DNA of 64,000 bases, taken from positions 1,760,001 through 1,824,000 of the forward strand of contig OZ242296.1 of the NCBI GenBank assembly GCA_965207735.1, read 5' to 3'. The position numbers and the translations under genes are program-made. The DNA comes from Candidatus Versatilivorator sp. (GTDB lineage Bacteria > Acidobacteriota > Terriglobia > Versatilivoradales > Versatilivoraceae). Each line of letters begins with the position of its first letter. The first letter of the stretch is position 1. The notes beneath the pieces are model-generated. The model ran no database searches. It was not told the origin of the DNA and worked only from the letters and a program-made list of their open reading frames with translations. Shown here piece after piece: positions 8,219-57,026 of this stretch.

Positions 8219-10810
8219 ATGCTGAAACCCAACCCTCTTTACCGCCTGTCGAGGTTGACTGCCATCTTGCTGCAGGTCGTGGCGCTACAGGTATTTGCTC
8301 AGCAGACTGACAGCCAGGAAGAACAAGCTCAATCGGAACAGAAGGAGGAAGAATCCGAGCTCCTCGAAGTCATCACGGAGGAGATCGTCGTCATCGGCAG
8401 TCGCGCCAAGCCGCGCTCGGTCACGAAGTCAATGGTGCCGGTGGACGTCATTACCTCTCAGGACTTCAGCAGCCAGGGAGATGCCGACTTGAGCAACCTG
8501 CTGCGTACGCTGGCGCCGTCCTACAACGTCAACACCCAACCCATCAGCGACGCCTCCACCATCGTGCGACCGCTCAGCCTGCGAAACCTGGCCCCCGACC
8601 ACACCCTGGTGCTGGTCAACGGCAAACGGCGCCATCGCGCGGCCGTCATCCACTGGGGTGGGAACGGCCTGGCCACTGGCGCCCAAGGCCCGGACCTTTC
8701 GGTGATTCCCGCCATCGCTCTACGCCAGGTCGAGGTGCTGCGTGATGGCGCTTCCGCTCAGTACGGTTCGGATGCCATTGCGGGTGTGATGAACTTCCAA
8801 CTCAAGGACGCCCGCGAGGGTGGCGCCGTTGAGGTGCGAACCGGCGCCTACGCCGCCGGTGACGGCGAAAGCTGGAGCGTCGCCGGCAACATGGGTCTAC
8901 CTTGGGGCCAATTCGGCTTTCTGAATCTCAGCGGTGAGTTCACCACCAGCAAACCGACCGACCGCAGCCTGCAGCGGGCCGATGCCGCAGCGCTGATTTC
9001 CCGGGGAAACACCAACGTTCGCAACCCGGCCCAGATCTGGGGTTCACCCGACATCGACGACGATGTCAAGCTGTGGGCCAATTTTGGGAACGTGTTCGGA
9101 AGCACGCAGTTTTACGGTCATGCCAACTATGCCGGGAAGAAAGTTACCGGCGGCTTCTTCTTCCGCAATCCCAATACACGCGGTGGCGTGTTCAGCACCG
9201 ATGGCGGCCAGACGCTCCTCATCGGCGACCTGCTGGACGCGACCGACGGCGTGCTCGACGGCTCGGCCGGCTGCCCCGAGGTTCGCGTCGTCGACCACGT
9301 GCCGGATCCGGCGGCGCTCAAGAGAGTCTTGGAAGACCCCAACTGCTTCTCCTTCCAGGAGCGCTTTCCCGGAGGCTTCACCCCCCAATTCGGTGGCGAG
9401 ACGCTGGATGCCTCACTGGTGGGCGGCTTCCGCGGCCAGGCCGGAAACGATATCGACTGGGACGTCAGCCTCAGCGCCGGCAGCAACGAAGCCGACTTCT
9501 TCATCTTCCACACGGTGAATGCGTCGCTCGGACCCGACTCGCCCACCGATTTCGACCCCGGCAAGTACACCCAGAGGGAGCTGAACTTCAACCTCGACCT
9601 TTCCTACGCGCTGAGCCGCAAAACCAACCTGGCCGGTGGCTTCGAATGGCGCAATGAACAGTTCGAGATCGGCATCGGCCAGCTCGACTCGTTCCGAATC
9701 GGCCCCCTGGCTCCCCAGGGATTCAGCGCTACCTCCAATGGCTTTCCCGGCTTCAGCGACATTGCGGCCGGCAAATGGAATCGATCCAACTATGCCGTCT
9801 ACGGTGACCTCGAGTTCCAGGGAGACGACGATGCCTGGACTGCCGGCGGCGCGCTGCGCTTTGAGGATTTCCAGGGTTTCGGTGGAACCTTGAATGGCAA
9901 GGTCGCGGCTCGTCTCCGACTGGTAGAGGCCTTCTCCCTGCGTAGCAGTCTGAGCACCGGCTTCCGTGCTCCCACACCCGGACAGTCGAACGCGTTCAAC
10001 GTATCGACCCAATTCGATCTTGCGCTCATGGATTTGGTCAACAACGGAACCATTCCGTCAACCTCTGCAGTCGCCGGGCTGAGAGGCGGCAATCCCCTGC
10101 AACCGGAGAGGTCGCGGAATTTCGCCTTGGGCGGAATCCTGGAACGGGGACCGTTCACACTGACCGCGGACCTCTTCCGCATCGACGTGGACGATCGCCT
10201 GGCCTTGACTCAGCTTTTCAGTTTGAGGGCGGAGGAGGTTGACGACCTGGTCGCCGAAGGAGTCACCAGCGCCTCCAACCTGCAAAACTTCCGCTTTTTC
10301 ACCAACGACTTCGCAACCAGGACCGCCGGACTGGATATGATCGCGACATGGACCCCACCACGGCTGGGCGGGCGCACCGACTTCAGCTTTCTTCTGAATC
10401 ACACCGATACGAAGGTGACGGACTTCAATCCCGACACCCTCAGCCAAAGGCGGCTTCGTTCGCTGGAGGAAGAACTTCCGGAGACCCGGTACAGCTTCAC
10501 CGTCAACCACAAGGCGCGGGAGGACAAACTGCGGCTACTCGGCAGGTTCAGCTATTACAGCAGTTGGTTCGACTTCGACAACTCACACACGTCGGCAGGA
10601 AAACACCTGCTGGATCTGGAGTTGGCCTACTCCTTCAGACGGAACATCACTTTTGCAATCGGCGGCCGGAACGTCTTTAACACCTACCCGGACGAAAACC
10701 CGATAGCACTGAGCGTCGGCGAGCGGTACAGCGAGTACTCCCCCTTCGGATTCAACGGCGCCTACTACTACGCCCGTCTCAGCTATTCCTTCGGTTCCGC
10801 TTTCAGATAG
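8219..10810 (+). CDS. TonB-dependent receptor
   Basis: TonB box EEIVVIGSR; plug LRNLAPDHTLVLVNGKRRH; VEVLRDGASAQYGSDAIAGVMN; C-terminal GAYYYARLSYSF. Confidence 0.95.
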   Translation: MLKPNPLYRLSRLTAILLQVVALQVFAQQTDSQEEQAQSEQKEEESELLEVITEEIVVIGSRAKPRSVTKSMVPVDVITSQDFSSQGDADLSNLLRTLAPSYNVNTQPISDASTIVRPLSLRNLAPDHTLVLVNGKRRHRAAVIHWGGNGLATGAQGPDLSVIPAIALRQVEVLRDGASAQYGSDAIAGVMNFQLKDAREGGAVEVRTGAYAAGDGESWSVAGNMGLPWGQFGFLNLSGEFTTSKPTDRSLQRADAAALISRGNTNVRNPAQIWGSPDIDDDVKLWANFGNVFGSTQFYGHANYAGKKVTGGFFFRNPNTRGGVFSTDGGQTLLIGDLLDATDGVLDGSAGCPEVRVVDHVPDPAALKRVLEDPNCFSFQERFPGGFTPQFGGETLDASLVGGFRGQAGNDIDWDVSLSAGSNEADFFIFHTVNASLGPDSPTDFDPGKYTQRELNFNLDLSYALSRKTNLAGGFEWRNEQFEIGIGQLDSFRIGPLAPQGFSATSNGFPGFSDIAAGKWNRSNYAVYGDLEFQGDDDAWTAGGALRFEDFQGFGGTLNGKVAARLRLVEAFSLRSSLSTGFRAPTPGQSNAFNVSTQFDLALMDLVNNGTIPSTSAVAGLRGGNPLQPERSRNFALGGILERGPFTLTADLFRIDVDDRLALTQLFSLRAEEVDDLVAEGVTSASNLQNFRFFTNDFATRTAGLDMIATWTPPRLGGRTDFSFLLNHTDTKVTDFNPDTLSQRRLRSLEEELPETRYSFTVNHKAREDKLRLLGRFSYYSSWFDFDNSHTSAGKHLLDLELAYSFRRNITFAIGGRNVFNTYPDENPIALSVGERYSEYSPFGFNGAYYYARLSYSFGSAFR

Positions 10811-10995
10811 TCGTCCCCCCGCCCTGCCGGGCGGATCATCCGAGAGTGAAACAACCAGAAATCGACCATCCCTTCGCGACCTTGGTACCCCGTCGCGGTC
10901 AACCTCAGCGCCTTCGTGCCCCTTCGTCGTTCTTCGTGCCCCTTCGTGGAAATGTCTTTTTCTTTTGTCTTTTTTCGGTTGTTTCAGGCAAGCCG
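10801..10995 (-). repeat. Unit A repeat (~182 bp), single copy
   Basis: Close reverse complement of 42567-42752; bounded by tttcagatag and ttgtttcaggcaagcc. Confidence 0.92.
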
Positions 10996-11037
10996 AATTC
11001 CATGCCTTCGGTCTGAAGGCCCAGGGGAACAGCCCAC

Positions 11038-11910
11038 CTATCCCTCCACCGGTTCGGTGCCGGCTATTGTCGTGCGGTGCATCACCCGGCGTTCGGCGCC
11101 GTGATCGAAGGGGATCACCACGTGGATGCACCAGCGGTTGTCCCACATCAGGACGTCGTGGGGCCGCCAGCGATGCCGGTAGACAAAACTGTCCTGGGTG
11201 GCCCAGGCCATCAGCTCGTCGACGAGCTGCCTGCTTTCGGCCTGGCCCAGCCCCAGGATGCGCTCCATGTAGGTGGCGCTGACGTAGAGCGAGAGACGCC
11301 AGCCGGCGGACGGCCGTCCCGGAGCCGGCGGGGGGTGGTCCACCGGCGGCACCTGAGCCACCTCAGCCGGATCCATGGGAGGGAGTTGGCGCAGTTGGCG
11401 GGAGAATTGAAAACTGTGGCGGGCCTTGAGCCCTGCGATTCTCGCTTTCAACTCCCCGGGCATTGTCTCGTAGGCGTGGCACATGTTGGCGAACAGGGTG
11501 TCGCCTCCTTTGCTGACCACTTCGATGGCATGAAGCACCGCCCCCCTGCTGGGTATTCGCCGGTAGCTGCTGTCGGTGTGCCAGACGCAAATCAGCGTAC
11601 TGTAGCGGGCACCGGGGGAATCGACCGGCCGGATGCGGTTGTCCTCGCCCACGTTGGTGACGCGGAAGATCTCCGGGACCGCCTGGGAACGGTTTGCCGC
11701 CTGGGGAAAGATCTCCAGGGACCCGAAATGGCGGCTGAAGGCGACCTGCTGCTCATCGGTTATCGCCTGCCGCCGGAAGAGCAGCACGCCGTAACGACTC
11801 CAGGCGCCCTTGATGGCTTCCACGGTGGACTGGTCGAGAGGCCCGGCCAGATCGACCCCGGTGACTTCAGCCCCGATCAACGGATGCAGCTTCCTGAGAC
11901 GAATGGGCAT
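11038..11910 (-). CDS. TauD/TfdA family Fe(II)/2-oxoglutarate dioxygenase
   Basis: IGAEVTGVDL; WHTDSSY (HxD); GGDTLFAN; WDNRWCIH; RVMHRTT. Confidence 0.9.
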   Translation of the reverse strand: MPIRLRKLHPLIGAEVTGVDLAGPLDQSTVEAIKGAWSRYGVLLFRRQAITDEQQVAFSRHFGSLEIFPQAANRSQAVPEIFRVTNVGEDNRIRPVDSPGARYSTLICVWHTDSSYRRIPSRGAVLHAIEVVSKGGDTLFANMCHAYETMPGELKARIAGLKARHSFQFSRQLRQLPPMDPAEVAQVPPVDHPPPAPGRPSAGWRLSLYVSATYMERILGLGQAESRQLVDELMAWATQDSFVYRHRWRPHDVLMWDNRWCIHVVIPFDHGAERRVMHRTTIAGTEPVEG

Positions 11911-11939
11911 TTCCGGGCTCCTGGCTTGCTCGACCCGGC

Positions 11940-13373
11940 TCAGGCCGTCAGCCCGAAGGAGTACAGCCGGGAGTTCCGCAGATAGAACTTGAGGCGGATA
12001 ACCTTCCCTTTCAGGCTTCCCAGGGAGGACTGGCGCCAGGTCACCGCGTGGCGGACCGCGTCGCTGTCAAAAACGGCGCAGTCGATCTTGCCGAAACCCG
12101 GGTACTGGGTCCCCTCGCCGTCCAGGACGGCCACGGCCACCAGGCCGCCGCGGGCCTGGGCGTTGATTTCGAGCGAGTCCCCCTCGCAGGTAAACGGCCG
12201 GGTGACCAGGGTCCCCATGTCTTCGCCGGCGTCCACCGAGGCAAACCCGTCCAGCCTCAGCTTGGCCAGGCAGATGGGACCGCTTCGTCCGGTGGGACCG
12301 TGCTCGATGGCGGAAGGAGAATAGTAGAACCATAGCTCATCACCCACCCTGACCGGAGCATTGGCCATGTACACCTCACCCGAGTCGATGCTCCCGGGCG
12401 GTCCGTTGGGGATGAAAGGCTTGCGGTCACCGAGGCGCGCCCACCGAATACCGTCCCGGCTGGCGGCAAGCTGGATGTCGATGGTTCCGAAGAAGCGGAT
12501 ATGGGGTTCCTCCGGAGGGGTATGGTAGGCCTCAAGCTGTCCGATATAGAGACCCTCATACTTGAAGACCGGCATTTGGTAGAACTGCAGGCCCGGGGGA
12601 TCCTGCTCGTCGGGGACCACGACCTCCTGGGGAAGGCTCCAGTGGATGAAGTCCTCGCTGACCGCACGCCCGATCCGACGGGTCGGATCGCCCTCGTGAA
12701 CAGAGGGGCGGCAATAGGCCACGTACTGGCGGTGGCTCTCGTCCCAACCCAGCAGGGTGTGGGAGTCGCTGGCCCGGGTGATCACCGGGTTGCCCGGATG
12801 TTTGGTCCAGTTCAGGCCGTCGGGTGAGAAGGCAACCGAAACACCGTCCCCCTCATTGGAGGTACCATCGGGATCGCGGGACTCGTAGAACAGGGATTTG
12901 TACAGACGGGCCGGATCGGGGTCGCGCGGGTCCCGGATGACGTTGCCTCCGGCGGCGTTCACCAGCACCAGGTTGTTGTCCCGGGAGCCTTCGTACTCGA
13001 CCAGGCCCAGGTTGGGCCGTTCCCAGAAAATACCGTCGTTCGAGGTTGCGTAGGCCATGCTGTAGAGTAGCTGTTCGGGGTCGAACCCCATGAACCCCCA
13101 CCTGGTCTCATTCCGTTTGCCCATGGGGGTGACACCCATGTTCCCCAATCCCGTATACCACATGCGGAAACGGCCGGTTTCCTCCTCCCGCCAGACCGTG
13201 CCATACAGCTCCAATCGGCCTTCCCAGGGATAGAGGGGAAACATGAGGGGATTGCCGGCATACTTGGCGGGCTGGTTCAGGGTGCGGCGCAAGTTCCGGG
13301 TCTCCTCCACGATCCATTCATCGATGAAGAGCTGCCGGCTGTTTCCCACTTCGAGCACTGTCGTATTCGTCAT
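11940..13373 (-). CDS. Five-bladed beta-propeller glycoside hydrolase-like protein
   Basis: RQLFIDEW; YATSNDGIFWERPNLG; SPDGLNW; LAKLRLDGFAS; IRLKFYLRNSRLYSF; start at ATG 13373. Confidence 0.7.
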   Translation of the reverse strand: MTNTTVLEVGNSRQLFIDEWIVEETRNLRRTLNQPAKYAGNPLMFPLYPWEGRLELYGTVWREEETGRFRMWYTGLGNMGVTPMGKRNETRWGFMGFDPEQLLYSMAYATSNDGIFWERPNLGLVEYEGSRDNNLVLVNAAGGNVIRDPRDPDPARLYKSLFYESRDPDGTSNEGDGVSVAFSPDGLNWTKHPGNPVITRASDSHTLLGWDESHRQYVAYCRPSVHEGDPTRRIGRAVSEDFIHWSLPQEVVVPDEQDPPGLQFYQMPVFKYEGLYIGQLEAYHTPPEEPHIRFFGTIDIQLAASRDGIRWARLGDRKPFIPNGPPGSIDSGEVYMANAPVRVGDELWFYYSPSAIEHGPTGRSGPICLAKLRLDGFASVDAGEDMGTLVTRPFTCEGDSLEINAQARGGLVAVAVLDGEGTQYPGFGKIDCAVFDSDAVRHAVTWRQSSLGSLKGKVIRLKFYLRNSRLYSFGLTA

Positions 13374-13426
13374 AAGGGAGCTCCGATCATCTTCCCGGGA
13401 ACTGGCGCCATTGTTCCCGTTTCCGT

Positions 13427-14446: not shown

Positions 14447-14454
14447 GGTTATTC

Positions 14455-16356: not shown

Positions 16357-16937
16357 TCAGGCAAGCCGGGCCCCCGCCGTGCCAGGCGGATCATTCAGAG
16401 GAGAAACAGCCAGCTGTTTGCGTTTTGGAAAGAGACAGGATTAATAGGACCAGAGGCCGCTGCACGGGACGCTGACTGGGAATCGGGGCGTTGGGCACGG
16501 CCAAGGCCCGCCACGGGGAAGATCAATCGAGAAGGACTAAGAATTGAACATGGATGCACAGGATGCACAGGATGCACAGGACGAGAGCTTCCTGCACCAG
16601 AAGCCAACTCGGGCGATGATCCGGTGCGGATTTGCAGATTCCCGGCAGTAGAAGCCAGCCGTTTCCTGAAGAATCCTGTGAATCCTGTGCATCGATGTTA
16701 ATGATCTCCTTAAATCACGATGGGGTCGGAAGCCCCCCACTGGCTCCGCCGCGGTCCTTGTTGCTTCTTCGCGGACAAATCCTCTTTGTCCCTTGTGTCC
16801 TTCGTTGACCCCCTTGCCGACCTTCGCCCCATCCCTCTTGAGCCTTCTCCAGCGCCTTGGTGGACCTTCGTCGTCCTTCGTGTGTCTTCGTGGATTCCTC
16901 TTTTTCTTTTTTCTTTTTCGGTTGTTTCAGACAAGCC
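16357..16937 (-). repeat. Composite repeat: A end + C (16396-16542) + B (16543-16702) + D (16703-16813) + A-type end
   Basis: 16357-16813 is a near-identical reverse complement of 42907-43355; C-B also at 26772-27060. Confidence 0.92.
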
Positions 16938-18835: not shown

Positions 18836-18868
18836 CCCACATTTTTCAAGGAGCGCCGGATTTCGTCC

Positions 18869-22053: not shown

Positions 22054-22061
22054 TTCTGGAC

Positions 22062-25762: not shown

Positions 25763-26215
25763 TCAAGAAGCCGGCGGCCGGTCATGGAACGGGTCCCGCC
25801 GGTCGAGTTCGGGGAACAAGGAAAAGTCGCGGTCCCGGGTAAGCAGGAATTCAACGCCGTGGGCGATACAGATCGCCGCAATCCGAGCGTCGTGCACGAT
25901 GGCTCCCCGTACTCGCGGACGCTGAACCAAGGCGCCCAGGATCTCCAAGAAATCATCCGTCTCACCGAGAAGGCGATTGCCTGGCGATGCCGCCCAGGCT
26001 TCGAGTTGCTGCCAGGCATGTTGCGGTGGAGTGGCTGCTTCCCTCCAGATTCGGTGATTTGTCACCACGCTTAGAAACTCGTAGCAGCATGGCCAGGGAA
26101 TCGCCCAAACCCTGTCTCCTTCAGCCAACGCCCGCAAAACCTCACGGGCTGCCTCGTGCAATCTTGACTCCCTGCGGTGGGCGTAGACAAGCAAGTTCGT
26201 ATCGACTGCAATCAA
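25763..26215 (-). CDS. vapC: Type II toxin, VapC/PIN ribonuclease
   Basis: MIAVDTNLLVYA; EFLSVVT; HDARIAA; LLTRDRDF. Confidence 0.92.
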   Translation of the reverse strand: MIAVDTNLLVYAHRRESRLHEAAREVLRALAEGDRVWAIPWPCCYEFLSVVTNHRIWREAATPPQHAWQQLEAWAASPGNRLLGETDDFLEILGALVQRPRVRGAIVHDARIAAICIAHGVEFLLTRDRDFSLFPELDRRDPFHDRPPAS

Positions 26216-26460
26216 TGTCTCTCCGGCTCACCGTAGATCATTCCACGCAGATCCTGCCACGAAAAAGCCTCCAGCGGGTCGGCAGCCTCTGGATCTCCGG
26301 TGCTCAGATCCGGCAACCGGTACCGGTTCCGTGACTCAGGCAGGGAGAGCAGTTGCCGGAGGCCCTCCTCCACCACGGAACGCAACGAACACCCTTTTTT
26401 CCTGGCGCGCTGTTTGGCGCGTGCCAGCAACTCGTCATGGATATCAATCGTCGTCTTCAT
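26212..26460 (-). CDS. vapB: Type II antitoxin, VapB (RHH-like)
   Basis: MKTTIDIHDELL..SLRSVVEEGLR; 4-nt overlap with vapC. Confidence 0.88.
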   Translation of the reverse strand: MKTTIDIHDELLARAKQRARKKGCSLRSVVEEGLRQLLSLPESRNRYRLPDLSTGDPEAADPLEAFSWQDLRGMIYGEPERH

Positions 26461-26465
26461 GAGAG

Positions 26466-26502
26466 CCATACTAGCAATATTAAATAGTATGGGCAACCCA
26501 TA
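26466..26502 (-). promoter_or_regulatory. Putative vapBC autoregulatory operator
   Basis: AT-rich patch with overlapping inverted repeats ccatacta/tagtatgg and tatggg-caa-cccata directly upstream of vapB. Confidence 0.5.
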
Positions 26503-26549
26503 TTCAAAATCGCCGGCCAAGTCACCTTTCCTGTCAAGAACCGGCAAAC

Positions 26550-27312
26550 TCTGACAAGTGTCGCCCCCGCTCTGTCGTGCGGATCATAAGAGAGTGAAAC
26601 TATCAGAAATCGACCAATCCCTTCGCGACCTTGGTATCCCGTTACGGTTCACCTCAACGCCTTAGTGGCCCTTCGTCGTTCTTCGTGCCCCTTCGTGGAA
26701 AAGTCTTTTTCTTTGTCTTTTGTCGGTTGTTTCAGGCAAGCCCGGCCCCCGCCGTGCCAGGCGGATCATTCAGAGGAGAAACAGCCAGCTGTTTGCGTTT
26801 TGGAAAGAAATAGGACCAGAGGCCGCTGCACGGGACGCTGACTGGGAATCGGGGCGTTGGGCACGGCCAAGGCTCGCCACGGGGAAGATCAATCGAGAAG
26901 GACTAAGAATTGAACATGGATGCACAGGATGCACAGGACGAGAGCTTCCTGCACCAGAAGCCAACTCGGGCGATGATCCGGTGCGGATTTGCGGATGTCC
27001 AGGACTGCAAGCCAGCCGTCTTCAGAAAAAATCCTGTGCATCCTGTGCATCCATGTGAATAAACCAACTACCCATGCTTGACCTTGAGCCGGTCTCCAGC
27101 CACCCGGCGCCCGGGTTGTTTCAGACAAGTCCCGCCCCCGCCCTGGTGTGCGGATCATACATAGAGTGAAACAATCAGAAATCGATCAACCCTTCGCGAA
27201 CTTGGTACCCCGTCGCGGCCAACCTCAGCGCCTTAGTGTCCCTTCGTCGTTCTTCGTGCCCCTTCGTGGATAAGTCTTTTTTCTTTTGTCTTTTTCGGTT
27301 GTTTCAGACAAG
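26550..27312 (-). repeat. Composite repeat: A + A end + C + B (26909-27060) + linker + A
   Basis: Junction cores at 26550, 26732, 27121, 27304; A periods 182 and 183 bp. Confidence 0.93.
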
Positions 27313-31858: not shown

Positions 31859-31973
31859 GGCTTGTTTGGAACAAACGAAAAAAGACAAAAGAAAAAGAGT
31901 TATCCACGAAGGGCCACTAAGGCGTTGAGGTTAACCGCGACGGGATACCAAGGTCACGAAAGGATTATCGATT
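31859..31973 (+). repeat. Unit A, left part (interrupted by IS)
   Basis: ggcttgtttggaacaaacgaaaaaagacaaaag..aggattatcgatt; continues at 33461. Confidence 0.9.
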
Positions 31974-33460
31974 GAGCCTTTTGCAAAATTCGGAATCGGG
32001 CATGACATTGGGCTGGCAACAGTGATGTTCCGGCGGTGACTACCCAGCTGCAAAGACCCTTTTGAAGGAAAAAGCCCGAATCTGATGGCCGGATGGCCAG
32101 CGGTCGCCGGACGCAGGCACAGCTTACCCTCTCCCGGCCTTGAGGCGGGCGAACCTGCTGTGCGGTTGGGGGTGGCAACCCGGTCTTCAGAGCGTCAGGC
32201 GCATCAACTGATCCACCGTCAGGGCCAGAATGCCGAACATCAGGTGGCACCTCACCTTGTCGGGGCCGCGAACCCTCACCTGCCTCCCGCCAAACTCCTC
32301 CTTGAGCCGTCCGTTGACCCGCTCCACCGTCGAGCGTTCCCGGTAGCGCCGCGCCTCGGGAGTCACTTGGCCGATACAGCGCCGGGCCAGTGCCTCCCGC
32401 TTCCGCTCGGCTTTCAAGGTAGCTCTTCGGCGGGGGTTGACGTCAATAATCGGCACATGCCCCAGCTTCTCACTGAAGGCCCGGATCTCCGGCGCATCGT
32501 AGGCGCTGTCCATCAAGTCGTAGAGACTCTCGACCCGCCTTGCCGTCAGCGTCGCCAGCGGAATGGCTGCCTGAGAGTCATGCACCGAGGCCGAGGTCAG
32601 CAGACAACTGACCGGAATCCCGCCGTCAATGGCGTCGAGGTGTAGCTTGTAGCCGGTCCAGCTCTCCTGATGCCCCTTGGCGTTGCGCTTGACGCCGATG
32701 TCGCAGGCCTTGGGCAACTCCTTCAACATTTCCTCCAGCGTCATCGACCCCTGCCGCTCCAGCCGGCTCAACCGCTTGGGCCGTCGCTCGCCCTTCGGCG
32801 GCCGGCCCCGCCGGCGTTTCCGCTTGGCCTCCGGCGCAGCCTTGGCCGCTGGCTTTTCCCGTCCCGCAATCGCCGTCGAGTCCCTCGACACATGCCCCGC
32901 CAAGTGGCCCTTCAGCGTCTCCTCCAGCAATGCCTCGTGCAAACGCCCCGGCAGGTCGCTCTCAGCGAATTCCGCAAAGGCCCGCGAGAAGGTCGACTCG
33001 CTCGGTACCTCCCACGCCCTCTCCCAGCCGCACAGCCGCCGCAGCCTCCCCTCACTCCTCAGCCGCTCCACCAATCCCCGCGTGGTCGCCACCTCCAGCA
33101 TCGACTTCGCCAGATAGGCTCGCGCCAGCACTGCCCGATCCTCCAGCGGCCGGCCACGCCAGCCCCGACTGTAAGGCAGCAACTCCTCCACCCGCACCAA
33201 CTCCAATACCTGCACCAGCCGCTGGTAACGCTCTCCCAGAGGCCCCAAAACTTCCTCCAGCAGGGGAAACAGCTCTCGTTGAAACCGGAACCAGTGTCGT
33301 GATAGGGTTTCCCTAAGGGGCAAGTTCCACCTCCGTTCATCATGTGGTTCAGACACCTTCATGATACAACAGACAGTGGTCTTGCCCCTCCTTCCACCTG
33401 CCCTCCTTGATCTTTCCCCACGTGAAAATTCCCGCTATCTGCGAATTTTGCAAAAGGCTC
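31974..33460 (-). mobile_element. Insertion sequence, 1487 bp, IS5/IS1182-like
   Basis: Perfect 19-bp TIRs gagccttttgcaaaattcg (31974-31992, 33442-33460); GATT duplicated at 31970-31973 and 33461-33464. Confidence 0.95.
32187..33362 (-). CDS. DDE transposase (DUF772-like N-terminus + DDE_Tnp_1-like core)
   Basis: VPSESTFSR; RDSTAI; GYKLHL; SVHDS; MDSAYD; YRERSTVERVNGRLK. Confidence 0.93.
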   Translation of the reverse strand: MKVSEPHDERRWNLPLRETLSRHWFRFQRELFPLLEEVLGPLGERYQRLVQVLELVRVEELLPYSRGWRGRPLEDRAVLARAYLAKSMLEVATTRGLVERLRSEGRLRRLCGWERAWEVPSESTFSRAFAEFAESDLPGRLHEALLEETLKGHLAGHVSRDSTAIAGREKPAAKAAPEAKRKRRRGRPPKGERRPKRLSRLERQGSMTLEEMLKELPKACDIGVKRNAKGHQESWTGYKLHLDAIDGGIPVSCLLTSASVHDSQAAIPLATLTARRVESLYDLMDSAYDAPEIRAFSEKLGHVPIIDVNPRRRATLKAERKREALARRCIGQVTPEARRYRERSTVERVNGRLKEEFGGRQVRVRGPDKVRCHLMFGILALTVDQLMRLTL

Positions 33461-33528
33461 GATTTCCAATTGTTTCACTCTATGTATGATCCGCCCGGCA
33501 GGGCGGGGGCCTCGCTTACCTGTAACAA
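33461..33528 (+). repeat. Unit A, right part
   Basis: gatttccaattgtttcactctatgtatgatccgcccggcagggcggggg..cttacctgtaacaa. Confidence 0.9.
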
Positions 33529-33654
33529 CGCCTGGGTTCGAATGAAGGGGAACCGATTGAGGGGTATTCTACAACGGGCACAGAGTTACACCCTACAATT
33601 CCCAGCGTCTGGTCTCGGTGCCGAGCATGAGTCAACCGCTGATTTAACTGCATA

Positions 33655-33897
33655 ATTAACATGGATGGACAGGATATACAGGATTTCTAATTGATGGGTC
33701 TGCACAGAATGCTCCGGGACTAAAGTTCTCTCCCCCCTCGAGTGCGACCGTTACCATTTCTTCAACAAGGATTCCAAAACCCGTTCCCATGGCCATGGAT
33801 CACCTCGAACGAGCACCCGATCATCGAGCGAGTCCGCTTCCTGCGCAACAGCTTCTCATTCTGTTTATCCTGTCCATCCTGTATATCCATGTTCAAT
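33655..33897 (-). pseudogene. Relic GxxExxY (PD-(D/E)XK nuclease family) cassette with terminal inverted repeats
   Basis: From ATG 33890: MDIQDGQDKQNEKLLRRKRTRSMIGCSFEVIHGHGNGF, then ES in a shifted frame; IRs at 33655-33684 and 33867-33897. Confidence 0.7.
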
Positions 33898-33995
33898 AAG
33901 TAGAAAACCAGTTCAACGGGACATTGTCCTTTTCCCGAAAGGCCATGGACCTCCGTTGTTTCACCCTCGAATGATCCGCCCCGTCGTGGGGGGGC
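33861..33995 (+). repeat. Module F (B end + linker + A end)
   Basis: Aligns along its length with 56883-57016. Confidence 0.8.
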
Positions 33996-34116
33996 GAGCC
34001 ATAACTCAATTGTAAAGAACTCCATCCGCCTCCGCCAGAAAACCAGGCCAACCTCCTGTTCGCCCTGGTCCTGGTGGCGATGTACTGGAGCACGTAGAAA
34101 GGGTTGCGCGGCAGCG

Positions 34117-38137: not shown

Positions 38138-38326
38138 CCGGGCAACCGGCACCTGCCCTGCTGGGCGGATTATTCGAGAGTGCAACAATTGGAATCGACC
38201 ATTCCTTCGCGAGCTTGGTATCCCCTCGCGGTTAACCTCGACGCATTAGTGCCCCTTCGTCGTTCTTCGTACCCCTTCGTGGATCACTCTTTTTCTTTTG
38301 TCTTTTTTCGTTTGTTTCAGGTAAGT
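38138..38326 (-). repeat. Unit A repeat, single diverged copy
   Basis: gcggattattcgagagtg..cttcgtggatcactctttttcttttgtcttttttcgtttgtttcaggtaag. Confidence 0.88.
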
Positions 38327-42469: not shown

Positions 42470-42564
42470 GGTGGAACCCAGGGAAACCGTTGTCGTCTGA
42501 AGCCATATTATCCGAGGGATTCGGCAGCCGGTCAAGAGCCCGGATTGGGGACGACCGGAAAGCG

Positions 42565-43535
42565 TGCCTGAAACAAACGAAAAAAGACAAAAGAAAAAGA
42601 CTTATCCACGAAGGGACACGAAGAACGACGAAGGGGCACTAAGGCGCTGAGGTTGGCCGCGACGGGGTACCAAGGTCGCGAAGGGATGGTCGATTTCAGA
42701 TTGTTTCACTCTCGAATGATCCGCACGGCAGGGCGGGGGCCCGGCTTGCCTGAAACAACCGAAAAACGACAAAAGACAAAGAAAAAGACTTATCCACGAA
42801 GGGGCACGAAGAACGACGAAGGGCCACTAAGGCGCTGAGGTTAACCGCGACGGGGTACCAAGGTCGCGAAAGGATTGTCGATTTCTGATTGTTTCACTCT
42901 CGAAAAGGGGGGTCAACGAAGGACACAAGGGACAAAGAGGATTTGTCCGCGAAGAAGCAACAAGGACCGCGGCGGAGCCAGTGGGGGGGCTTCCGACCCC
43001 ATCGTGATTTAAAGAGATCATTAACATCGATGCACGGGATTCACAGGATTCTTCAGGAAATGGCTGGCTTCTAATGCCGGGAATCCGCAAGTCCGCACCG
43101 GATCTTCGCCCGAGTTGGCTTCTGGTGCAGGAAGCTCTCGTCCTGTTAATCCTGTGCATCCATGTTCAATTCTTAGTCCTTCTCGATTGATCTTCCCCGT
43201 GGCGGGCCTTGGCCGTGCCCAACGCCCCGATTCCCAGTCAGCGTCCCGTGCAGCGGCCTCTGGTCCTATTAATCCTGTCTTTTTCCAAAACGCAAACAGC
43301 TGGCTGTTTCTCCTCTGAATGATCCGCACGGCAGGGCGGGGGCCCGGCTTGCCTGAATCAACCGACAAGAGACAAAAGAAAAAGACATTTCCACGAAGGG
43401 ACACGAAGAACAACGAAGGGACACTAAGGCGCTGAGGTTGACCGCGACGGGGTGCCAAGGTCGCGAAGGGTTGATCGATTTCTGATAGTTTCACTCTCGT
43501 ATGATCCGCACGACAGGGCGGGGGCGACACTTGTT
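42565..43535 (+). repeat. Largest composite repeat: A + partial A + D + B (43020-43170) + C + A end + A
   Basis: Junction cores at 42567, 42749, 43352, 43534; A period 182 bp. Confidence 0.95.
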
Positions 43536-43616
43536 AGCAATTGATAATCCCCGGGCGACTCATTGAGCCGCGAAGCGGCGGCAGCAGGTAGCCGTGGGCG
43601 TGAGCCCATGGAAAGG

Positions 43617-45203: not shown

Positions 45204-45632
45204 CTAGGTCAACGGATTCTTCCAACGCAACTCATCAAATCGGCCGAAATCCAAATCGTTGGAAAAGAGCGTGTAGCCGTGCTCGATGGCATAGGCTGCC
45301 AGGTGAGCGTCCGTGGTCAGTCCAGATCCGCCCGGAACCGATCGAAGCAACCCGGACAGAATGGGCCAATGGCGACCCGTGGGTGCAAGCAATCTGACAT
45401 TGGGCTGTGCGAGCCAGCTCTCTGCAATATCCAGCGCTTCGCCCACATCGAGGGGGGAATTAAAAACGCGACGGTTAGTGGTGAGGCGGACAAAACCCAG
45501 CAGGCTGGCGTAACACAGCCCAACCGGTTGGTCCGACGAAAGAACTCCTTCCCACCAGCGGCGCGCTCGGGCATGGAATGGACTGGCCGCGTCCACCGCA
45601 TAAACCAGAAGATTGACATCGGGAAGAATCAT
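45204..45632 (-). CDS. vapC: Type II toxin, VapC/PIN ribonuclease
   Basis: MILPDVNLLVYA; GFVRLTTN; TDAHLAA; SNDLDFGRF..WKNPL. Confidence 0.93.
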   Translation of the reverse strand: MILPDVNLLVYAVDAASPFHARARRWWEGVLSSDQPVGLCYASLLGFVRLTTNRRVFNSPLDVGEALDIAESWLAQPNVRLLAPTGRHWPILSGLLRSVPGGSGLTTDAHLAAYAIEHGYTLFSNDLDFGRFDELRWKNPLT

Positions 45633-45640
45633 TGGCGCGG

Positions 45641-48518: not shown

Positions 48519-48530
48519 AGAGGCATCCCG

Positions 48531-49614: not shown

Positions 49615-49962
49615 CCCCCACAGCATCAGCCTTCGCCATCCAGCGCTGCCGTTCGGAGGCGCCGCGAATGCCCCCCACCGCATCAGCCTTCGCCATTCGG
49701 CTCGGCTTCTGCGACTCCCCCTCAAGGGGGGAGTGATAGGTACAAACCGGTAACATCCTTTACATAATAAACCGGGAACATGGTTTACACCCCGCCCGGG
49801 AATCGAGCAAGGCGCCCCATGCAAGCCTCAAGTATCACTCCCCCCTTGAGGGGGAGTCGGAGAGACAAGGGCTCCGCCCGCAGTCGATCCGGAGGGGGGC
49901 ATTCGCGGCGTCGCGAGGGGGCCCGCCCGCAGTCGAGACGGAGGGGGGCCAACGCGGCGCCC
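49615..49962. repeat. Palindromic repeat complex with a perfect 27-bp inverted pair
   Basis: cgactccccctcaaggggggagtgata (49712-49738) and its exact reverse complement (49833-49859); flanking direct repeats gcatcagccttcgccat x2 and ccgcccgcagtcga..ggaggggg x2. Confidence 0.85.
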
Positions 49963-50159
49963 CGTAAGTGAATACCACCCGTCAGGGCAAGTGCGCCAAG
50001 GCAGCGTCCGCGTGGCGCAAGCCTCACAATCATGCTGAACATCTACCTCGCCCGGGGCTGCTATACTATCGCTATCGGACATTGGAAACGTGGGGACGCA
50101 AAGCCGGCGGCGTTGCCGGCGTTCATGAGGTGCGGACCCGGTTCCGGGGTCGATCTCTC

Positions 50160-52040: not shown

Positions 52041-52049
52041 CGAGTCCGT

Positions 52050-52101
52050 GCCTCAAACCGAAAAGCCAAAATAAAGACCTCCACGAAGGGACACGAAAAA
52101 C
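52050..52101 (+). repeat. Short degenerate unit A end
   Basis: gcctcaaaccgaaaagccaaaataaagacctccacgaagggacacgaa. Confidence 0.65.
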
Positions 52102-52881
52102 ATGGAGAATATAGCCATGCCGCCGGTGGAAATACGCACCACCCAAACCATCCTGTCTCTGGATGCCGAGGGCCGGGACCGAGCCGCCCTCTGGTTTCCG
52201 GAATTGGTCGAGATCGGGGACACCGGAGAACGACCGGTATTCTTCGACGGTCCGTCCCCCTGCCCCGCCTGGCAATCCCGGGACGGCTCGACCCTGGGTT
52301 ACACGGTCGAGATCCCGGGTAGTCTGGCCATCGACGCCAGCATCCGGTCACACCCGCCCGGATTCGACCTCAGCCTCGAGCTCACCAACGCAAGCCCGCG
52401 GGACTGGAAGCAGGTGATTGCCGCCGTTTGCCTGCAACTGACGCCGGCAGCCTCCTTTCTGGATCTGACCAGGGAACGGACCGGCTGCGTTTGCGGCGGA
52501 CGGGTGCGGTCCTTCGCCGAAATGAAGACCATCGGAGGGCGCCCCGTTTACCTGTTTTCATTCGTCCGCGACCACACCCCCCAGAAGCTGCACGGGGACC
52601 CCACCCGACCCGGAGCCAAGTGGAGCCACACGGTCGAGCACCCCGACGACGGATTCCTGTGGGTAAGCGCCGCCGGTTCCAACCGGACGCTCTGGATGGG
52701 TTGGGACGACAGCCAGTTCCTTCAGAGCAACATCACCCCCGCCTACGGATGTGTCCACTCCAATCCCTTCTTCGGCGATCTGGCTTCAGGAGAATCGGTT
52801 CGCAGGAGAGGCCGGATCGCCGTGCTGGACGGCAGCCCCAAGGAGGCCCACCGGGACTTTCTGAGAGAGTTCGGCGGGTAG
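52102..52881 (+). CDS. Hypothetical protein (beta-rich)
   Basis: 259-aa ORF with typical codon style; no recognised motif. Confidence 0.65.
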   Translation: MENIAMPPVEIRTTQTILSLDAEGRDRAALWFPELVEIGDTGERPVFFDGPSPCPAWQSRDGSTLGYTVEIPGSLAIDASIRSHPPGFDLSLELTNASPRDWKQVIAAVCLQLTPAASFLDLTRERTGCVCGGRVRSFAEMKTIGGRPVYLFSFVRDHTPQKLHGDPTRPGAKWSHTVEHPDDGFLWVSAAGSNRTLWMGWDDSQFLQSNITPAYGCVHSNPFFGDLASGESVRRRGRIAVLDGSPKEAHRDFLREFGG

Positions 52882-53122
52882 TGGAGCCTGCAATAGTCGC
52901 CCAATTCCAGACGCAGAGAAAGCGGGTTGCGTCGCACAAGAGATCTTAGTAGGTCAGGACGGTGCTGTCCCCCACCGACCAAAGTCCCCCTTGCCGCACA
53001 GTGCTCAATGAGATTAAAATGTCGGGTTGATCCCGGCGGTTCGGAGGGTCTTCCGCTGGTCCTGTGCCGGCCTTCTTCCCGGATGCCGGCCGGCCCTAAT
53101 GTGGCAATTCCAAGGAGAAACC

Positions 53123-53926
53123 GTGCACTTCACCCAGGAACAAATCGAATTCTTCCAAGCTAACGGATATCTGCTGGGCCCCCGGGTGCTGTCGGAGGCC
53201 CGGATCGCGGAGTTGAAGCAGCGCATCCAGGGCATCCTGGACGGCAGCGTCTCCTTTCCCCAGCTCTACAAGGGAGAAACGGTGGAAAAGTCCGATGCCA
53301 AGGGTCAGTTGCCTTCGGTGAAGGTCGTCAACCTTTCCCGCCACGACTCGGTGTTTCGCAAGGTTCTAGGCAACGAGGCCGTCAGCACTCTGGCCCACGA
53401 CCTCATGGAAGGGCCGGTACGGCTCTGGGAAGACCAGATGATCTACAAGCCGCCCTTCGACCGCGAGACCACGCTGGGGTGGCACCAGGACTACACCTAC
53501 TGGAACCACGTCTATCCTTCGGACCTGGCCACCTGCTGGATCGCCATCGACGATGCCACCGTCGACAATGGCTGCATGTACGTGGTTCCGGGAAGTCACC
53601 GCTGGGAGCTGGATTACTCCCGCGAGGACGTGGACGTGACCGACCCGGAGTGGCTCCTGAAGCGCTCCGATCTACCCGCCAAAGTGGAACCGGTGGCCTG
53701 TGAAGTGCCGGCCGGCCACTGCCATTTTCACCACTGCAGAACCTTTCACGGCTCCTACGGCAACAAGACCGACAACCCCCGGCGGAGCTACGTCATGCAC
53801 CTGATGCCGGGAAATATCCGCCGCGGCGGCGATGACTGGAACGACCGCATGGCCTCGGTGGAGGGAGTGGCCGTGGGAGAGATCGTAAAAGGCCCCAGCT
53901 ATCCGGAATTGCCGGTTTCGGCTTAG
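53123..53926 (+). CDS. Phytanoyl-CoA dioxygenase (PhyH) family
   Basis: AAGGAG RBS + GTG; WHQDYTYW; WIAIDDATVDNGCMYVVPGSH; HGSYGN..RR. Confidence 0.92.
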   Translation: MHFTQEQIEFFQANGYLLGPRVLSEARIAELKQRIQGILDGSVSFPQLYKGETVEKSDAKGQLPSVKVVNLSRHDSVFRKVLGNEAVSTLAHDLMEGPVRLWEDQMIYKPPFDRETTLGWHQDYTYWNHVYPSDLATCWIAIDDATVDNGCMYVVPGSHRWELDYSREDVDVTDPEWLLKRSDLPAKVEPVACEVPAGHCHFHHCRTFHGSYGNKTDNPRRSYVMHLMPGNIRRGGDDWNDRMASVEGVAVGEIVKGPSYPELPVSA

Positions 53927-55206
53927 TCCTCAATATTCCTCCACTCCAACTGCAGGAATTTGAAGGGCTTGTCCCCGAGCACCTTGTATCCGTGCTTGAC
54001 GAAGCGGGGCGTGAAGATGATGTCTCCGGGGCCGACCTCGCGCTCGAACTCGCCCACCTCCCACAGCGCTTTGCCCTCCAGCACGATTTCGATCTGCTCC
54101 ATGTCCGGATGGTAGTGGACAGGGGTGTTGCCCCCAGGGGCGTACTGCACCAGGGCGATGATCGCCGATTCCGAGTTGATCTGCGGTGCGAGAAAGGTCA
54201 CCTGTGAAATGCCGAAGTGCCCTCCGGCTGCCTCGGCGCTGATTTGCTGGATAGGATGGGTCTTTTCGGAGATCACGTACCCCACCGGCTCCGCCACCGC
54301 CACATCCAGGGCTCCGCTCCCGTCGAGATCCAATCCCTTCTTGGCCCTTGGCCACCAACGGGTAAAGCCTCCCAGATTGAACTTGAGTCGGGATACGGTG
54401 TGAGGGTTGGCCTTGCCGTTGGCGACGAACAGTTCCCCCGAAGCCGTGAAGTCCAGACCGCTGGGAGATTTCAGCGTCGGATTCTTGACGGGGTCTCCCG
54501 CCACCAACTCCCCCTCGCTCAACAGAACGCGGTGAAGCTGGTCAGTGGCGGCATCGGCAATGAAAGCCTCGCCCCAAGGGCTTTCGGCAGCGCCTGTCAG
54601 TTCACCTCCCGACAGAACCAGGGCGGTTCGGGGACCGCCCGCCAGGGACTCTCCCGACTTGTCGGTGAGCTGGTAGACGTGATCGCCGGAAATCCCGAAG
54701 ACCCGGCCCTGCAACACGAACACATCCCGGTAGGTGCTCCCCGTCATCTTTCCGAACTTGTCCTTCACGGGATCTCGACGGGGTGCGCTGTTCCAGTCCT
54801 TGAAGTACATATGGCTCCGTTGGCGGAAGGTCTCGTCAAGATTCGGGTCTTCAAGGAGCCGCCCGCTCAGACCGGCACGGTCCCCCGGATTGCCGTCGTA
54901 GAGCCTGAGCCGGTCGGCGGCCGGGTCGTAGACCAGCCGGCCCCTCAGGTGCCGCTGGCGGTCGTATACCGAGAGGATATTGCCCCGCTTCATGGCAATT
55001 GAGGCGGCAGGAAAGATGCCTGGGAAATCCTGGTCGCTGTAGGAAGCCACCTGCTTGACCTCGTCCTGCTTGTCTCTGATCTTGTACTGGACGATCTCCC
55101 CCTCGTTCTTGAGGATAAAGATCCGCTCCGTGGCCAGACAGGGCAACAGGGTGAAGAGCAGCAGCGGCAACCCCAACAGCGGGGTCCTCAGGGTGCGTAT
55201 TGTCAT
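53923..55206 (-). CDS. Secreted beta-propeller-like protein with C-terminal cupin domain
   Basis: Signal peptide; NHL-like SPSGLDFTASGELFVAN; cupin HYHPDMEQ..GDIIFTPRFVKHG. Confidence 0.7.
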   Translation of the reverse strand: MTIRTLRTPLLGLPLLLFTLLPCLATERIFILKNEGEIVQYKIRDKQDEVKQVASYSDQDFPGIFPAASIAMKRGNILSVYDRQRHLRGRLVYDPAADRLRLYDGNPGDRAGLSGRLLEDPNLDETFRQRSHMYFKDWNSAPRRDPVKDKFGKMTGSTYRDVFVLQGRVFGISGDHVYQLTDKSGESLAGGPRTALVLSGGELTGAAESPWGEAFIADAATDQLHRVLLSEGELVAGDPVKNPTLKSPSGLDFTASGELFVANGKANPHTVSRLKFNLGGFTRWWPRAKKGLDLDGSGALDVAVAEPVGYVISEKTHPIQQISAEAAGGHFGISQVTFLAPQINSESAIIALVQYAPGGNTPVHYHPDMEQIEIVLEGKALWEVGEFEREVGPGDIIFTPRFVKHGYKVLGDKPFKFLQLEWRNIED

Positions 55207-55289
55207 CGATTCCTCCATTCCTTTGGTTGTTCCGGAGACACGGGCAATGCCCCGACTCCATGTCATTCGGGGCAAGCCAGTCGGAAAAT

Positions 55290-56168
55290 CTAGCGAAATT
55301 GCAGCCGGGCCCACTCCTCGGCGCTCCGCACGGCGCGCTCCGGCCGGCTCCGGCTGCGGGCGATGTGTCCCTGGTCCTGGCGCAGGGTCGGTTGGCGGGC
55401 GTCCTGATAGCGCCAGTCCAGGTTCCAGCGAACCGTCCGGCTGCGATTGGGCAAGCCCTGGTGAAACAGCAGATTGCTGAACAGCACCATGTCCCCCGGG
55501 TCCAGCTCGATGGATACGGCCTTCTCGAATAAGGGCGTATACCTGGGGTCGACGATCTCCAGGTAGTAGCGTCGGCTGACGTGGGGCACCACCCCCAGCT
55601 TGTGGCTGCCCGGGACGAACTGCATGCAGCCGTTCTCCTCCCGCGCCGGCACCAGCGGCGACCAGACATTGAGCATTCGCAACTCCACCACGTCATCTTC
55701 CTGTACAGCGTCACTAGTGTGCACGAAGTGGGTGTAGCCCCCGTCCTGGTGCCACCAGATGCGAGTGCCCTCCCAGTCGGGGAGCTTGGGACGCACGGTG
55801 TAGTTGGGATAGAGGCGAATCTCGCCGCCCAAGACCGACTCGACCAGGTCGAGGAGCTCCGGATGAAAAAAATAGCCGAAGATGCCGGGCAAGTGCAGTT
55901 CGCGGCGGAAGCTTTGGGGCGCCCGGTCCAGGCAGTCCCGGAACAGCCGGTAGATCCGGGTGTCGAAGGGCTCGTCTGCAAAGGAGGACTGGACCCGTCC
56001 CTCCCGAATCAACCCGGCAGCCAGTTGGTCGACCAGCCCGTTGAGATCGGCCCGGGCATCGGCCACCACTTGCGGTTCCACCAGACCCCGCAGGACGACA
56101 TATCCCTCCTCGTCCAGTTGCTTTCTTAACCCAGATTGCATGAGGTCATTGGAGCGGGCTTGGGGCAC
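55290..56168 (-). CDS. Phytanoyl-CoA dioxygenase (PhyH) family
   Basis: WHQDGGY; NGCMQFVPGSH; GDMVLFSNLLFHQGLPN..RWNLDWRY. Confidence 0.92.
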   Translation of the reverse strand: MPQARSNDLMQSGLRKQLDEEGYVVLRGLVEPQVVADARADLNGLVDQLAAGLIREGRVQSSFADEPFDTRIYRLFRDCLDRAPQSFRRELHLPGIFGYFFHPELLDLVESVLGGEIRLYPNYTVRPKLPDWEGTRIWWHQDGGYTHFVHTSDAVQEDDVVELRMLNVWSPLVPAREENGCMQFVPGSHKLGVVPHVSRRYYLEIVDPRYTPLFEKAVSIELDPGDMVLFSNLLFHQGLPNRSRTVRWNLDWRYQDARQPTLRQDQGHIARSRSRPERAVRSAEEWARLQFR

Positions 56169-56265
56169 AGACAGACTCCCAGGAGCAAGCAGGGATCATA
56201 GAGTAAATGGGTGGATAAATAAAGAAGGCCGGCGAGGATCGCCGCAGTCGATCGCGGCAAAAAAT

Positions 56266-57026
56266 ACTTGCCTGAAACAAACGACAAGAGACAAAAGAAA
56301 AAGACTTATCCACGAAGGGGCACGAAGAACGACGAAGGGACACTAAGGCGCTGAGGTTAACCGCGACGGGGTGCCAAGGTCACAAAGGGATTATCGATTT
56401 CTGATTGTTTGACTCTCGAATGATCTGCACGGCAGGACAGGGGCCGGCTTGCCTCAAACAGACGAAAAAAGACAAAAGACAAAGAGTTATCCACGAAGAG
56501 ACACGAAGAACGGCGAAGGGCCACTAAGGCGCTGAGGTTTACCGCGACGGCATACCAAGGTCACAACGGGATGGTCGATTTCTGGTTGTTTCACTCTCGT
56601 ATGATCCGCCCGGTACGGCGGCGGCCGGACTCGCGGACAAAACGGGAGTTTTCCAAAAGGCGCCCGTCGGCTTTCAGAGAATTCGCCCCCCCGGATACCC
56701 TCCATCGCACCATCGGGACGCCCGCGCTCCCGGGTGGCATTCTCCCCTGACGCCGTGACACCAACGTCACAATATTGCAGAAGCGCCCGGGCGCCGCTCG
56801 TCATTGACCGAGCTCCATCCCTATTCGTCCCCATTCGTGTTCATTGGTGGTTCGTCTTCATTTCCAAAACCAAAACGGCTGGCTGTTTATCCTGTCTATC
56901 CTGTGCATCCATGTTCAATCAGTAGAAAACCGGTTTTGCACGACAGTGCCCTTGTTCCCGATAGGACATGAAGATGCGTTGTTTCACTCTCGTATGATCC
57001 GCCCGTCGTGGGGGGCGGGACTTGTC
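56266..57026 (+). repeat. Composite repeat: A + A + E + F
   Basis: Junction cores at 56271 and 56452 (181-bp period); E at 56669-56852; F at 56883-57016. Confidence 0.92.

Follow-up and report, generated by a model that had tools for sequence, protein, structure and literature searches.

Repeat modules in the window

The window analysed here, a stretch of 64,000 nucleotides from Candidatus Versatilivorator sp. (assembly GCA_965207735.1, contig OZ242296.1, positions 1,760,001 to 1,824,000), contains an intergenic repeat of about 182 bp, hereafter unit A, which stands alone or is stacked with longer modules that share its left and right ends. All copies listed in an earlier sequence-only reading of the window were found where it had placed them. 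The modules and the features nested in or adjoining them are given below in window coordinates.

10811..10992, + strand: single unit-A mini-element in IS110 orientation (left end, cargo, right end)
10811–~10853, + strand: left end of this unit (8 nt, hairpin, ATCATCC site, GAAAC repeat)
~10977–10992, + strand: right end of this unit, terminating in the AG core
16366..16935, + strand: longer module, ends as in unit A, cargo a mosaic; its left target is TCAGGCAAG (16357–16365)
26559..27312, + strand: three-module stack (unit A 26559–26740, 389-bp module 26741–27129, unit A 27130–27312)
31861..33998, − strand: two-module stack (short unit A and ~480-bp module)
33514 to 31861, − strand, within 31861..33998: short unit A, interrupted by a nested DDE insertion sequence (IS)
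About 33998 to 33515, − strand, within 31861..33998: ~480-bp module; outer core degenerate
31974..33460, − strand: unrelated IS5/IS1182-like DDE IS nested in unit A; open reading frame (ORF) 32187–33362
38146..38325, + strand: older, degenerate unit-A copy
42563..43529, − strand: three-module stack (unit A 43529–43348, 603-bp module 43347–42745, unit A 42744–42563)
43530..43611, − strand: target-side repeat module; left target CTAACAAG at 43530–43537; holds an Acido-Lenti-1 match at 43566–43611
56267..57020, − strand: three-module stack (391-bp module 57020–56630, unit A 56629–56448, unit A 56447–56267)

Core-to-core distances in the window are 182 (10810–10992), 182 (26558–26740), 183 (27129–27312), 182 (42563–42745), 182 (43348–43530), and 181 bp (56267–56448), in line with the 181–183 bp proposed from the sequence; the shorter class described with it exists genome-wide (159–169 bp), next to classes of 176–184 and 189–191 bp. 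At the first unit, the left target and core (AGATAG) shares bases with the stop codon of the gene for a TonB-dependent receptor; this stop codon is the landing site of the unit (10803–10810), and the gene remains intact. The 3' part of the 603-bp mosaic module (43347–42745) is unit A, the outer core of the unit at 42744–42563 is mutated to ACG, and the right end of the 391-bp module (57020–56630) is degenerate. Supposed fragments at 8140, 25627, 52050, and 62970 have no element ends in a genome-wide end scan and belong instead to a free 10-mer repeat family.

The source genome of the window (G000; 5.26 Mb, one contig, 61.9 per cent G+C) yielded 337 blastn matches to unit A, 169 of them at least 150 nt long. 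A 14-nt right-end motif occurs 280 times in it, compared with 2 and 2 times in two mononucleotide-shuffled genomes. The 9-mer core TCAGRCAAG, allowing one mismatch, occurs 27 times in the window (nine times exactly) against 25.6 expected; it is therefore not enriched, and the repeat signal is the whole end rather than the 9-mer. Most copies are old, with a median identity of 88 per cent. Of 13 congeners, 12 contain unit A, several of them as single-contig genomes; the unit is therefore not the assembly artefact that the sequence-only reading had considered; no match was found in any of 17 more distant genomes. In an Rfam scan of the window nothing reached the gathering score within unit A, and the sole match, Acido-Lenti-1, lies outside the unit.

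Unit A shares its ends with a ten-copy IS110 element

The end scan of G000 returned 250 left-end and 274 right-end motifs, from which we parsed 173 left-to-right modules in 99 loci, 43 of which hold two to six modules. They comprise 108 copies of unit A, 14 minimal modules (~60 bp), ten copies of a long module, and 25 other cargo clusters, some of which are unit A split by introns or other ISs. Apart from the minimal modules, the set falls into 27 cargo clusters. The cargo between the two ends ranges from 7 bp to 2.7 kb.

The long module, which came to light when every left end was paired with every right end in G000, is an IS110 element, hereafter the helper (1669/1681 bp; ten copies, 97.7–100 per cent identical over 1.2 kb; for example G000:C1:2478436-2480112, with the recombinase ORF at 2478462–2479853). 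Its ORF of 464 amino acids is read in the TCAGRCAAG direction. The protein passes the curated cut-offs of Pfam DEDD_Tnp_IS110 and Transposase_20, scores 215.6 bits against NCBIfam NF033542 (cut-off 140), and retains the residues D32/E80/D117/D120/S352, all of which except D120 are invariant in 11 homologues. The proteins that match it best by sequence and by fold are IS621 and ISCro4, IS621 being the best structurally. The predicted structure is of moderate quality (predicted local distance difference test score 69, predicted template modelling score 0.43) and is unreliable for the ~130 residues by which the protein exceeds IS621. This extra part is a helical region, which might contact the DNA hairpin or the inverted repeat.

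Unit A and the helper align only over the first ~45 nt (76–82 per cent identical) and the last 16 nt. Unit A thus has both ends of a cognate IS110 element, no transposase, and many copies, as an IS110-dependent MITE (miniature inverted-repeat transposable element) would. A small RNA (sRNA) homologous to the helper 5' region, as is Ssr9, was sought in unit A and not found, since only the two ends align to the helper. The sequence-only reading was right that the window holds no cognate enzyme; the helper copies lie elsewhere in the genome. Its statement that the repeat matches no IS architecture is refuted by the ends of unit A, which are those of the helper. Among the 13 congeners, the helper was detected in five, and G001 has neither helper nor unit A. 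Loci with transposases 78–98 per cent identical to that of the helper come from records of Terriglobia or Candidatus Versatilivorator.

A predicted bridge RNA and its guides

Homologues of the helper were gathered from genomes and metagenomes. Out of 66 loci examined, 31 have a parsable RNA anchor, 30 of these with a left end, and the 25 homologues that remain after dereplication form the set for guide covariation. The RNAalifold consensus of 21 RNAs is a three-way junction with two internal loops. In this structure, 96.3 per cent of cells are paired (30–58 per cent in slid controls), and 16 of the 36 consensus pairs have changed on both sides, a count that none of 500 shuffles reached; this test leans favourable because the structure was derived from the same alignment. 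Folded as a single sequence, the RNA gains nothing over shuffles (z +1.03).

The target guide lies on the 3' strand of the first loop and is identical to the left flank and AG taken together in 19 of the 25 homologues; the donor guide, on the 3' strand of the second loop, is identical to the right end in 17 of 19. Neither score was reached in 50,000 permutations. The cross control is far weaker (3/20 perfect; 572/20,000 permutations). The base that follows the core likewise keeps step with the RNA in 19/25 homologues (57/20,000 permutations). The crossover core at both ends is AG. The sequence-only reading had taken the whole 9-mer as the core, of which only the AG dinucleotide has this role. 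On one side the 9-mer represents the right end of the element, and on the other a target that resembles it.

On the tree, for which one row (L179, a mis-translated long branch) was disregarded, the nearest relatives of the helper share its donor guide and have other target guides, which suggests that the equality of the two guides in the G000 lineage is a derived state. A sister IS110 subfamily (L099–L107, 79 per cent identical) has a different target guide and sits in (CAGTGRT)n heptamer arrays; it has its own mini-elements of ~70 bp. The targets of homologues L175, L179, and L182 resemble the T-arm and 3' end of a tRNA; the bases that come next are restored by the left end. The 5' RNA region, the gene, and unit A are all represented in metatranscriptome contigs (four runs from three studies); contigs of this kind can show neither transcription nor strand nor ends and were not used as evidence.

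Probable self-targeting and head-to-tail stacking

In the G000 helper, both the target guide and the donor guide read AGRCAAG. All nine parsed helper copies (a tenth is unparsed) lie directly on the right end of another module, and in all nine the donor guide equals the right end of the copy itself. Across the genome, left flanks agree with the guide at six or seven of seven positions in 54/134 cases, compared with 117/2000 random sites. Right flanks are unconstrained (144/150 unique), with a weak C bias at +1 and +2, and a search of the G000 right flanks for a right-target guide or a target hairpin found none (p = 0.64 and 0.91; no k-mer excess).

All 116 internal junctions run from a right end to a left end. 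Tandem neighbours are 88.5 per cent identical (44 pairs), compared with 88.4 per cent among all pairs; being no more alike than random pairs, they point to serial insertion and leave the concatemeric origin considered in the sequence-only reading unsupported. Fourteen of the 108 unit-A copies have a twin of at least 99 per cent identity at another locus.

We conclude from these sequence comparisons that unit A is a gene-less element with the ends of the IS110 helper, very probably mobilised in trans by the helper's recombinase and predicted bridge RNA, and that convergence of the guides likely regenerates the target and leads to head-to-tail stacking. In the mechanism that we propose, the recombinase–RNA complex would form a circle by joining the right end to the left end at its AG core, and this circle would then insert 3' of AGRCAAG, mostly after a weak TTTC-like motif and with the right side nearly free. 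With the two guides converged on AGRCAAG, each insertion likely recreates its target: the new right junction would again read TTTCAGRCAAG and so be the best target that the genome offers. Whatever DNA a left end and a right end enclose (7 bp to 2.7 kb) would travel along, giving rise to the mosaics.

Empty sites

A gap-based search for empty sites covered about 2.1 Mb of the congener G002 and 16 stretches of other congeners. It flagged 21 gaps, among which are four precise empty/filled pairs, all versus G002 and all with one core in the empty allele; the clean empty sites lack exactly the segment from left end to right end. Two of the four retain the left (target-side) variant of the core, as predicted, one retains the right variant, and one is uninformative. 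The sequence-only reading saw in the outer cores hybrid junctions of recombination and not a target-site duplication, a view that the two sites retaining only the left variant bear out. In run X3, one contig skips the helper and joins the flank to a unit end, a weak case with a 28-nt side.

Several observations weigh against mobilisation by the helper as outlined above. Among the three precise pairs with differing cores, one retains the right variant, and 17 of the 21 flagged gaps are imprecise, composite, or repeat artefacts. The single core expected at empty sites from the sequence-only reading holds in the four precise pairs and fails at window loci 42550 and 38130, where the empty alleles of more distant congeners are without a full core. 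Seven of the 12 unit-bearing congeners, including the single-contig G009 and G011, have no helper match at E ≤ 1e-40, so that loss of the helper must be assumed there. The purine in the target guide agrees with the landing site in only six of nine helpers. The guide covariation leaves out the 35 of 66 homologue loci without a parsable anchor, and the related sequences in it are not independent. In contig data, which cannot show them, neither transposition nor an RNA boundary was seen, and an end-to-end circle joint was not among the matches listed in eight contig sets, in which rare forms are dropped.

Alternative explanations

Unit A could instead be a host repeat similar to repetitive extragenic palindromic (REP) sequences or bacterial interspersed mosaic elements (BIMEs), spread by another route, for instance by a REP-associated tyrosine transposase (RAYT) or in connection with GxxExxY genes, with the IS110 element merely targeting its end. 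IS110 elements such as ISPpu9 do target REPs (PMC12288879), and the position of the nine parsed helpers on module ends, the persistence of units in genomes without a detectable helper, and the similarity of the unit body to repeats around a GxxExxY pseudogene (82 per cent over 94 nt) all fit such a history. However, the units carry an IS110 left end of about 45 nt, which a mere target would not need, the 14 minimal modules contain little beyond the two ends, and clean empty sites lose exactly what lies from left end to right end. The sole Y1 transposase gene of G000 is flanked by a different REP, which also removes unit A from the class of REP/BIME repeats with a RAYT. We consider this explanation very improbable. 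Homologous recombination or gene conversion among old, immobile copies with IS110-derived ends would account for most of the mosaics under a second view, which is in keeping with the age of most copies, with the many module boundaries that lie inside cargo rather than at cores, with orthologous loci in G002 that have their outer ends in common and differ in their internal modules, and with the one empty site that retains the right core, as a deletion between direct repeats could leave it. Against it speak insertions that lie precisely in unique DNA and retain the left core, near-identical helpers each on a different module end, the 14 near-identical twins at unlinked loci, and the uniform order of ends at the 116 internal junctions. 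Recombination probably contributes to the shuffling of cargo and does not explain the junctions; as a general account it seems to us very improbable.

A further candidate is a non-autonomous rolling-circle element of the IS91/Helitron kind, nicked after CTTG, ending in a hairpin and a CTNN terminus, and leaving concatemers by replication. The opposite strand of unit A does start after CTTG and finish with a GC hairpin and a CT-containing tetranucleotide, and IS91-type genes occur in 3/13 congeners, but the ends of the IS91-like elements in those genomes bear no relation to those of unit A. G000 yielded no Y2 transposase in a search whose controls were silent and which does detect the family in congeners. 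Near-identical concatemers are likewise missing, given that tandem neighbours resemble each other no more than random pairs do, whereas G000 does contain an IS110 element whose ends are those of unit A and whose guides match. The rolling-circle reading is largely refuted, and we give it hardly any credence. The IS91-family Y2 genes of the congeners (L017–L028, in G001, G009, and G011) come with an ORF upstream and with sub-terminal inverted repeats; their right end has a long imperfect palindrome. Unit A is also not a classical MITE with terminal inverted repeats: its inverted repeats are sub-terminal and asymmetric, and the apparent duplication is a target equal to the donor end. The GxxExxY nuclease was rejected as a mobiliser, as the best PDDEXK_3 match is a broken gene that accounts for cargo and not for ends, and the DDE transposase of the window was rejected because it is a nested passenger in unit A.

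A third guide and a possible folded donor

The 5' strand of the donor loop, a third guide, equals the 7 nt right behind the left-end hairpin in 15/23 homologues (0/50,000 permutations; 25/50,000 when each distinct guide is represented by one row), with one mismatched base in four rows (L093, L135, L149, and L182). On the tree, at least five concerted RNA–DNA changes are seen. The site of this guide lies 20–36 nt inside the left end. An intramolecular RNA partner was also sought for the third guide, and no perfect complement was found in 29 RNAs (best 4–6 of 7).

The third guide and the left donor guide have the same sense, so that a single DNA strand would pair with both, although in the RNA loop the strands that carry them run antiparallel; folding of the junction strand would reconcile the two. 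With the hairpin included, left ends measure 32–42 nt, and without it only 19–21 nt; part of this constancy is imposed, as the far end of the hairpin was searched only within a 6-nt range. The hairpin begins 7–8 nt from the core in 23/24 cases, and the minimum-energy fold of 20/24 modelled junctions contains a sub-terminal stem (judged by eye). The donor would accordingly be presented as one strand folded back, with an outer stem formed by the sub-terminal inverted repeats, a bubble of 13x15 nt that holds both donor-guide sites, and the left-end hairpin as its cap.

Three points tell against the fold-back step or the fit of the third guide in G000. Both strands fold about equally well, and the z-scores are modest (−0.7 to −3.9). 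Mutation of the A-box hairpin of ISPpu9 did not stop the formation of minicircles (PMC12288879), so that the role of the hairpin would be confined to integration. The commonest left-end site in G000 is ATCATAC (125/250) and not ATCATTC (80), which matches the third guide of the resident helper. On the model, we hold the chances that the donor is recognised as a single strand folded back on itself to be even. To a wider proposal we give slightly less than even chances: the bridge RNA of this clade would grip both donor halves on one attC-like folded strand, and in the present lineage drift of the target guide onto the donor guide would have produced a self-feeding stacker of cassettes, which would move whatever DNA a 45-bp left end and a 16-bp right end enclose, rebuild its landing site with each insertion, and resemble in its workings an integron array made by an RNA-guided recombinase.

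The third guide of the L099–L107 sister fits the commonest left-end variant of G000, hinting at an earlier helper.

Comparison with known systems

The closest described case is MITEPpu9/ISPpu9 of Pseudomonas putida KT2440, an IS110-group pair, as far as the available portions of the study go (PMC12288879). The likeness is in the anatomy of the ends: an AG core, a left box of ~43 bp with a hairpin 6–8 nt from the core, a right box of 16 bp, and a short inverted repeat at the same offsets (Table S2, PMC12288879). MITEPpu9 (the ssr9 module) is likewise gene-less, has the same ends as its IS, and occurs alone, beside the transposase gene, or in tandem, and ISPpu9 mobilises this module as circles (PMC12288879). 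Unlike the present system, ISPpu9 targets host REPs and has eight MITE copies of one kind that carry an sRNA (PMC12288879); here, the target is the element's own right end, and there are 173 parsed modules with many types of cargo. No guides are mapped in the consulted passages of the ISPpu9 paper (PMC12288879). A search of plasmids gave only relatives below 60 per cent identity and no named ISPpu9.

As in the IS110 family, the helper has a DEDD RuvC-like domain and a Tnp domain with the catalytic serine, a structured non-coding end with two loops (21 homologues), guides that covary with target and donor DNA, and a dinucleotide core at both ends with a single core in the empty site; the canonical four-guide geometry, in which right guides pair with the top strand beside the core, was not found. 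With IS621 and ISCro4, as they appear in the sources consulted, it shares the DEDD and serine recombinase, the 5' non-coding RNA with two guide loops (PMC11208160, PMC13626964), the dinucleotide core, and the lack of a target duplication (PMC11208160, PMC13626964; PDB 8wt6, 9t56). It differs from them in length (464 amino acids versus 328 for the IS621 chain), in sequence (17–19 per cent identity), and in that the core-containing guide is on the 3' strand in both loops, no right-target guide was detected, and the second donor guide is on the same strand as the first, with its site distal in the left end.

Expanded IS110 loci, in the part of the preprint available, resemble the G000 loci in reinsertion into occupied sites, tandem non-coding units beside IS110 transposases, capture of cargo, and lack of target immunity, but insertion there does not regenerate the target (bioRxiv 10.64898/2026.08.14.744561). 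Each unit in G000 retains its two ends, the target is probably regenerated, and units are scattered over the genome away from the transposase. Single-stranded circles have been described for IS621 and CazIS110-1 (bioRxiv 10.64898/2026.08.31.748434; 10.1101/2025.10.25.684509); together with one-sided matches, they would supply the intermediate and the loose right-target rule proposed here. The portions of these preprints available describe no folded donor of the stem–bubble–hairpin type for guide pairing.

Unit A is best explained as an IS110-dependent miniature element of a known kind, at an unusual scale. Two features were not found in print, namely the likely regeneration of the target through guide convergence and the distal donor guide on the same strand; a literature search, outside of which most subscription papers and bioRxiv supplements fell, returned no description of guides converging on an element's own end or of a fold-back donor.

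Bridge recombinases are under development for genome editing, and both their target requirement and whether they move one strand or two are debated. G000 offers a natural record of about 250 end junctions from one clade, which point to a one-sided target rule of 7–9 nt and to ends down to 45 and 16 bp in length. Through guide convergence, an inserted element could restore the target that it used, contrary to what the available text reports for expanded loci (bioRxiv 10.64898/2026.08.14.744561). If true, the fold-back donor would give a role to the left-end palindrome left unexplained in the seen portions of the ISPpu9 study (PMC12288879), and it would explain how a guide could be missed by pipelines that scan only 25 nt from the core, as the accessible methods of one preprint suggest (bioRxiv 10.64898/2026.10.21.760802).

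Cargo and neighbouring elements

REP, BIME, and REPIN mosaics are intergenic, modular, rich in hairpins, and lineage-specific, as are the modules described here. Unlike those of REP/BIME/RAYT systems, the present modules are bounded by IS110 ends, and the RAYT-like gene of G000 has its own REP. This Y1 gene (L011, G000:C1:2225708-2228938) stands with its REP array, and the same REP occurs as cargo in IS110-bounded modules. Part of the REP/BIME-like mosaic DNA in these Acidobacteria is built by IS110 ends.

The middle of unit A is 82 per cent identical over 94 nt to repeats that flank a broken GxxExxY gene, and from this sequence match its cargo was likely captured from the repeat family around that nuclease pseudogene. 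At the locus in question (L012, G000:C1:2248430-2251612), the GxxExxY/PDDEXK_3 gene, with a stop inside its reading frame, lies between inward-pointing arrays of the same 10-mers as in unit A, an arrangement resembling that of REPs around RAYT genes. Of the 10-mer motifs in G000, 157 lie within 60 nt of a right end and 272 do not.

Two group II intron-like elements with reverse transcriptase-like ORFs, recognised by eye (L051, G000:C1:4519442-4521617 and 1406216-1408393), are inserted at an identical position inside the 10-mer block of unit A, and a cluster of five long modules contains such elements. The DDE IS nested in the window has 15-bp terminal inverted repeats and a 4-bp GATT duplication and falls below all NCBIfam cut-offs; its repeat motif occurs 120 times in G000, 17 times immediately after unit-like sequence. 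The repeat module with the Acido-Lenti-1 match recurs ~20 times as a landing site of left ends, and this ‘sRNA’ family may therefore be a REP-like repeat. PIN-domain genes at 25763–26547 and 45204–45632 of the window adjoin or neighbour mosaic loci, one of them with a VapB-like partner.

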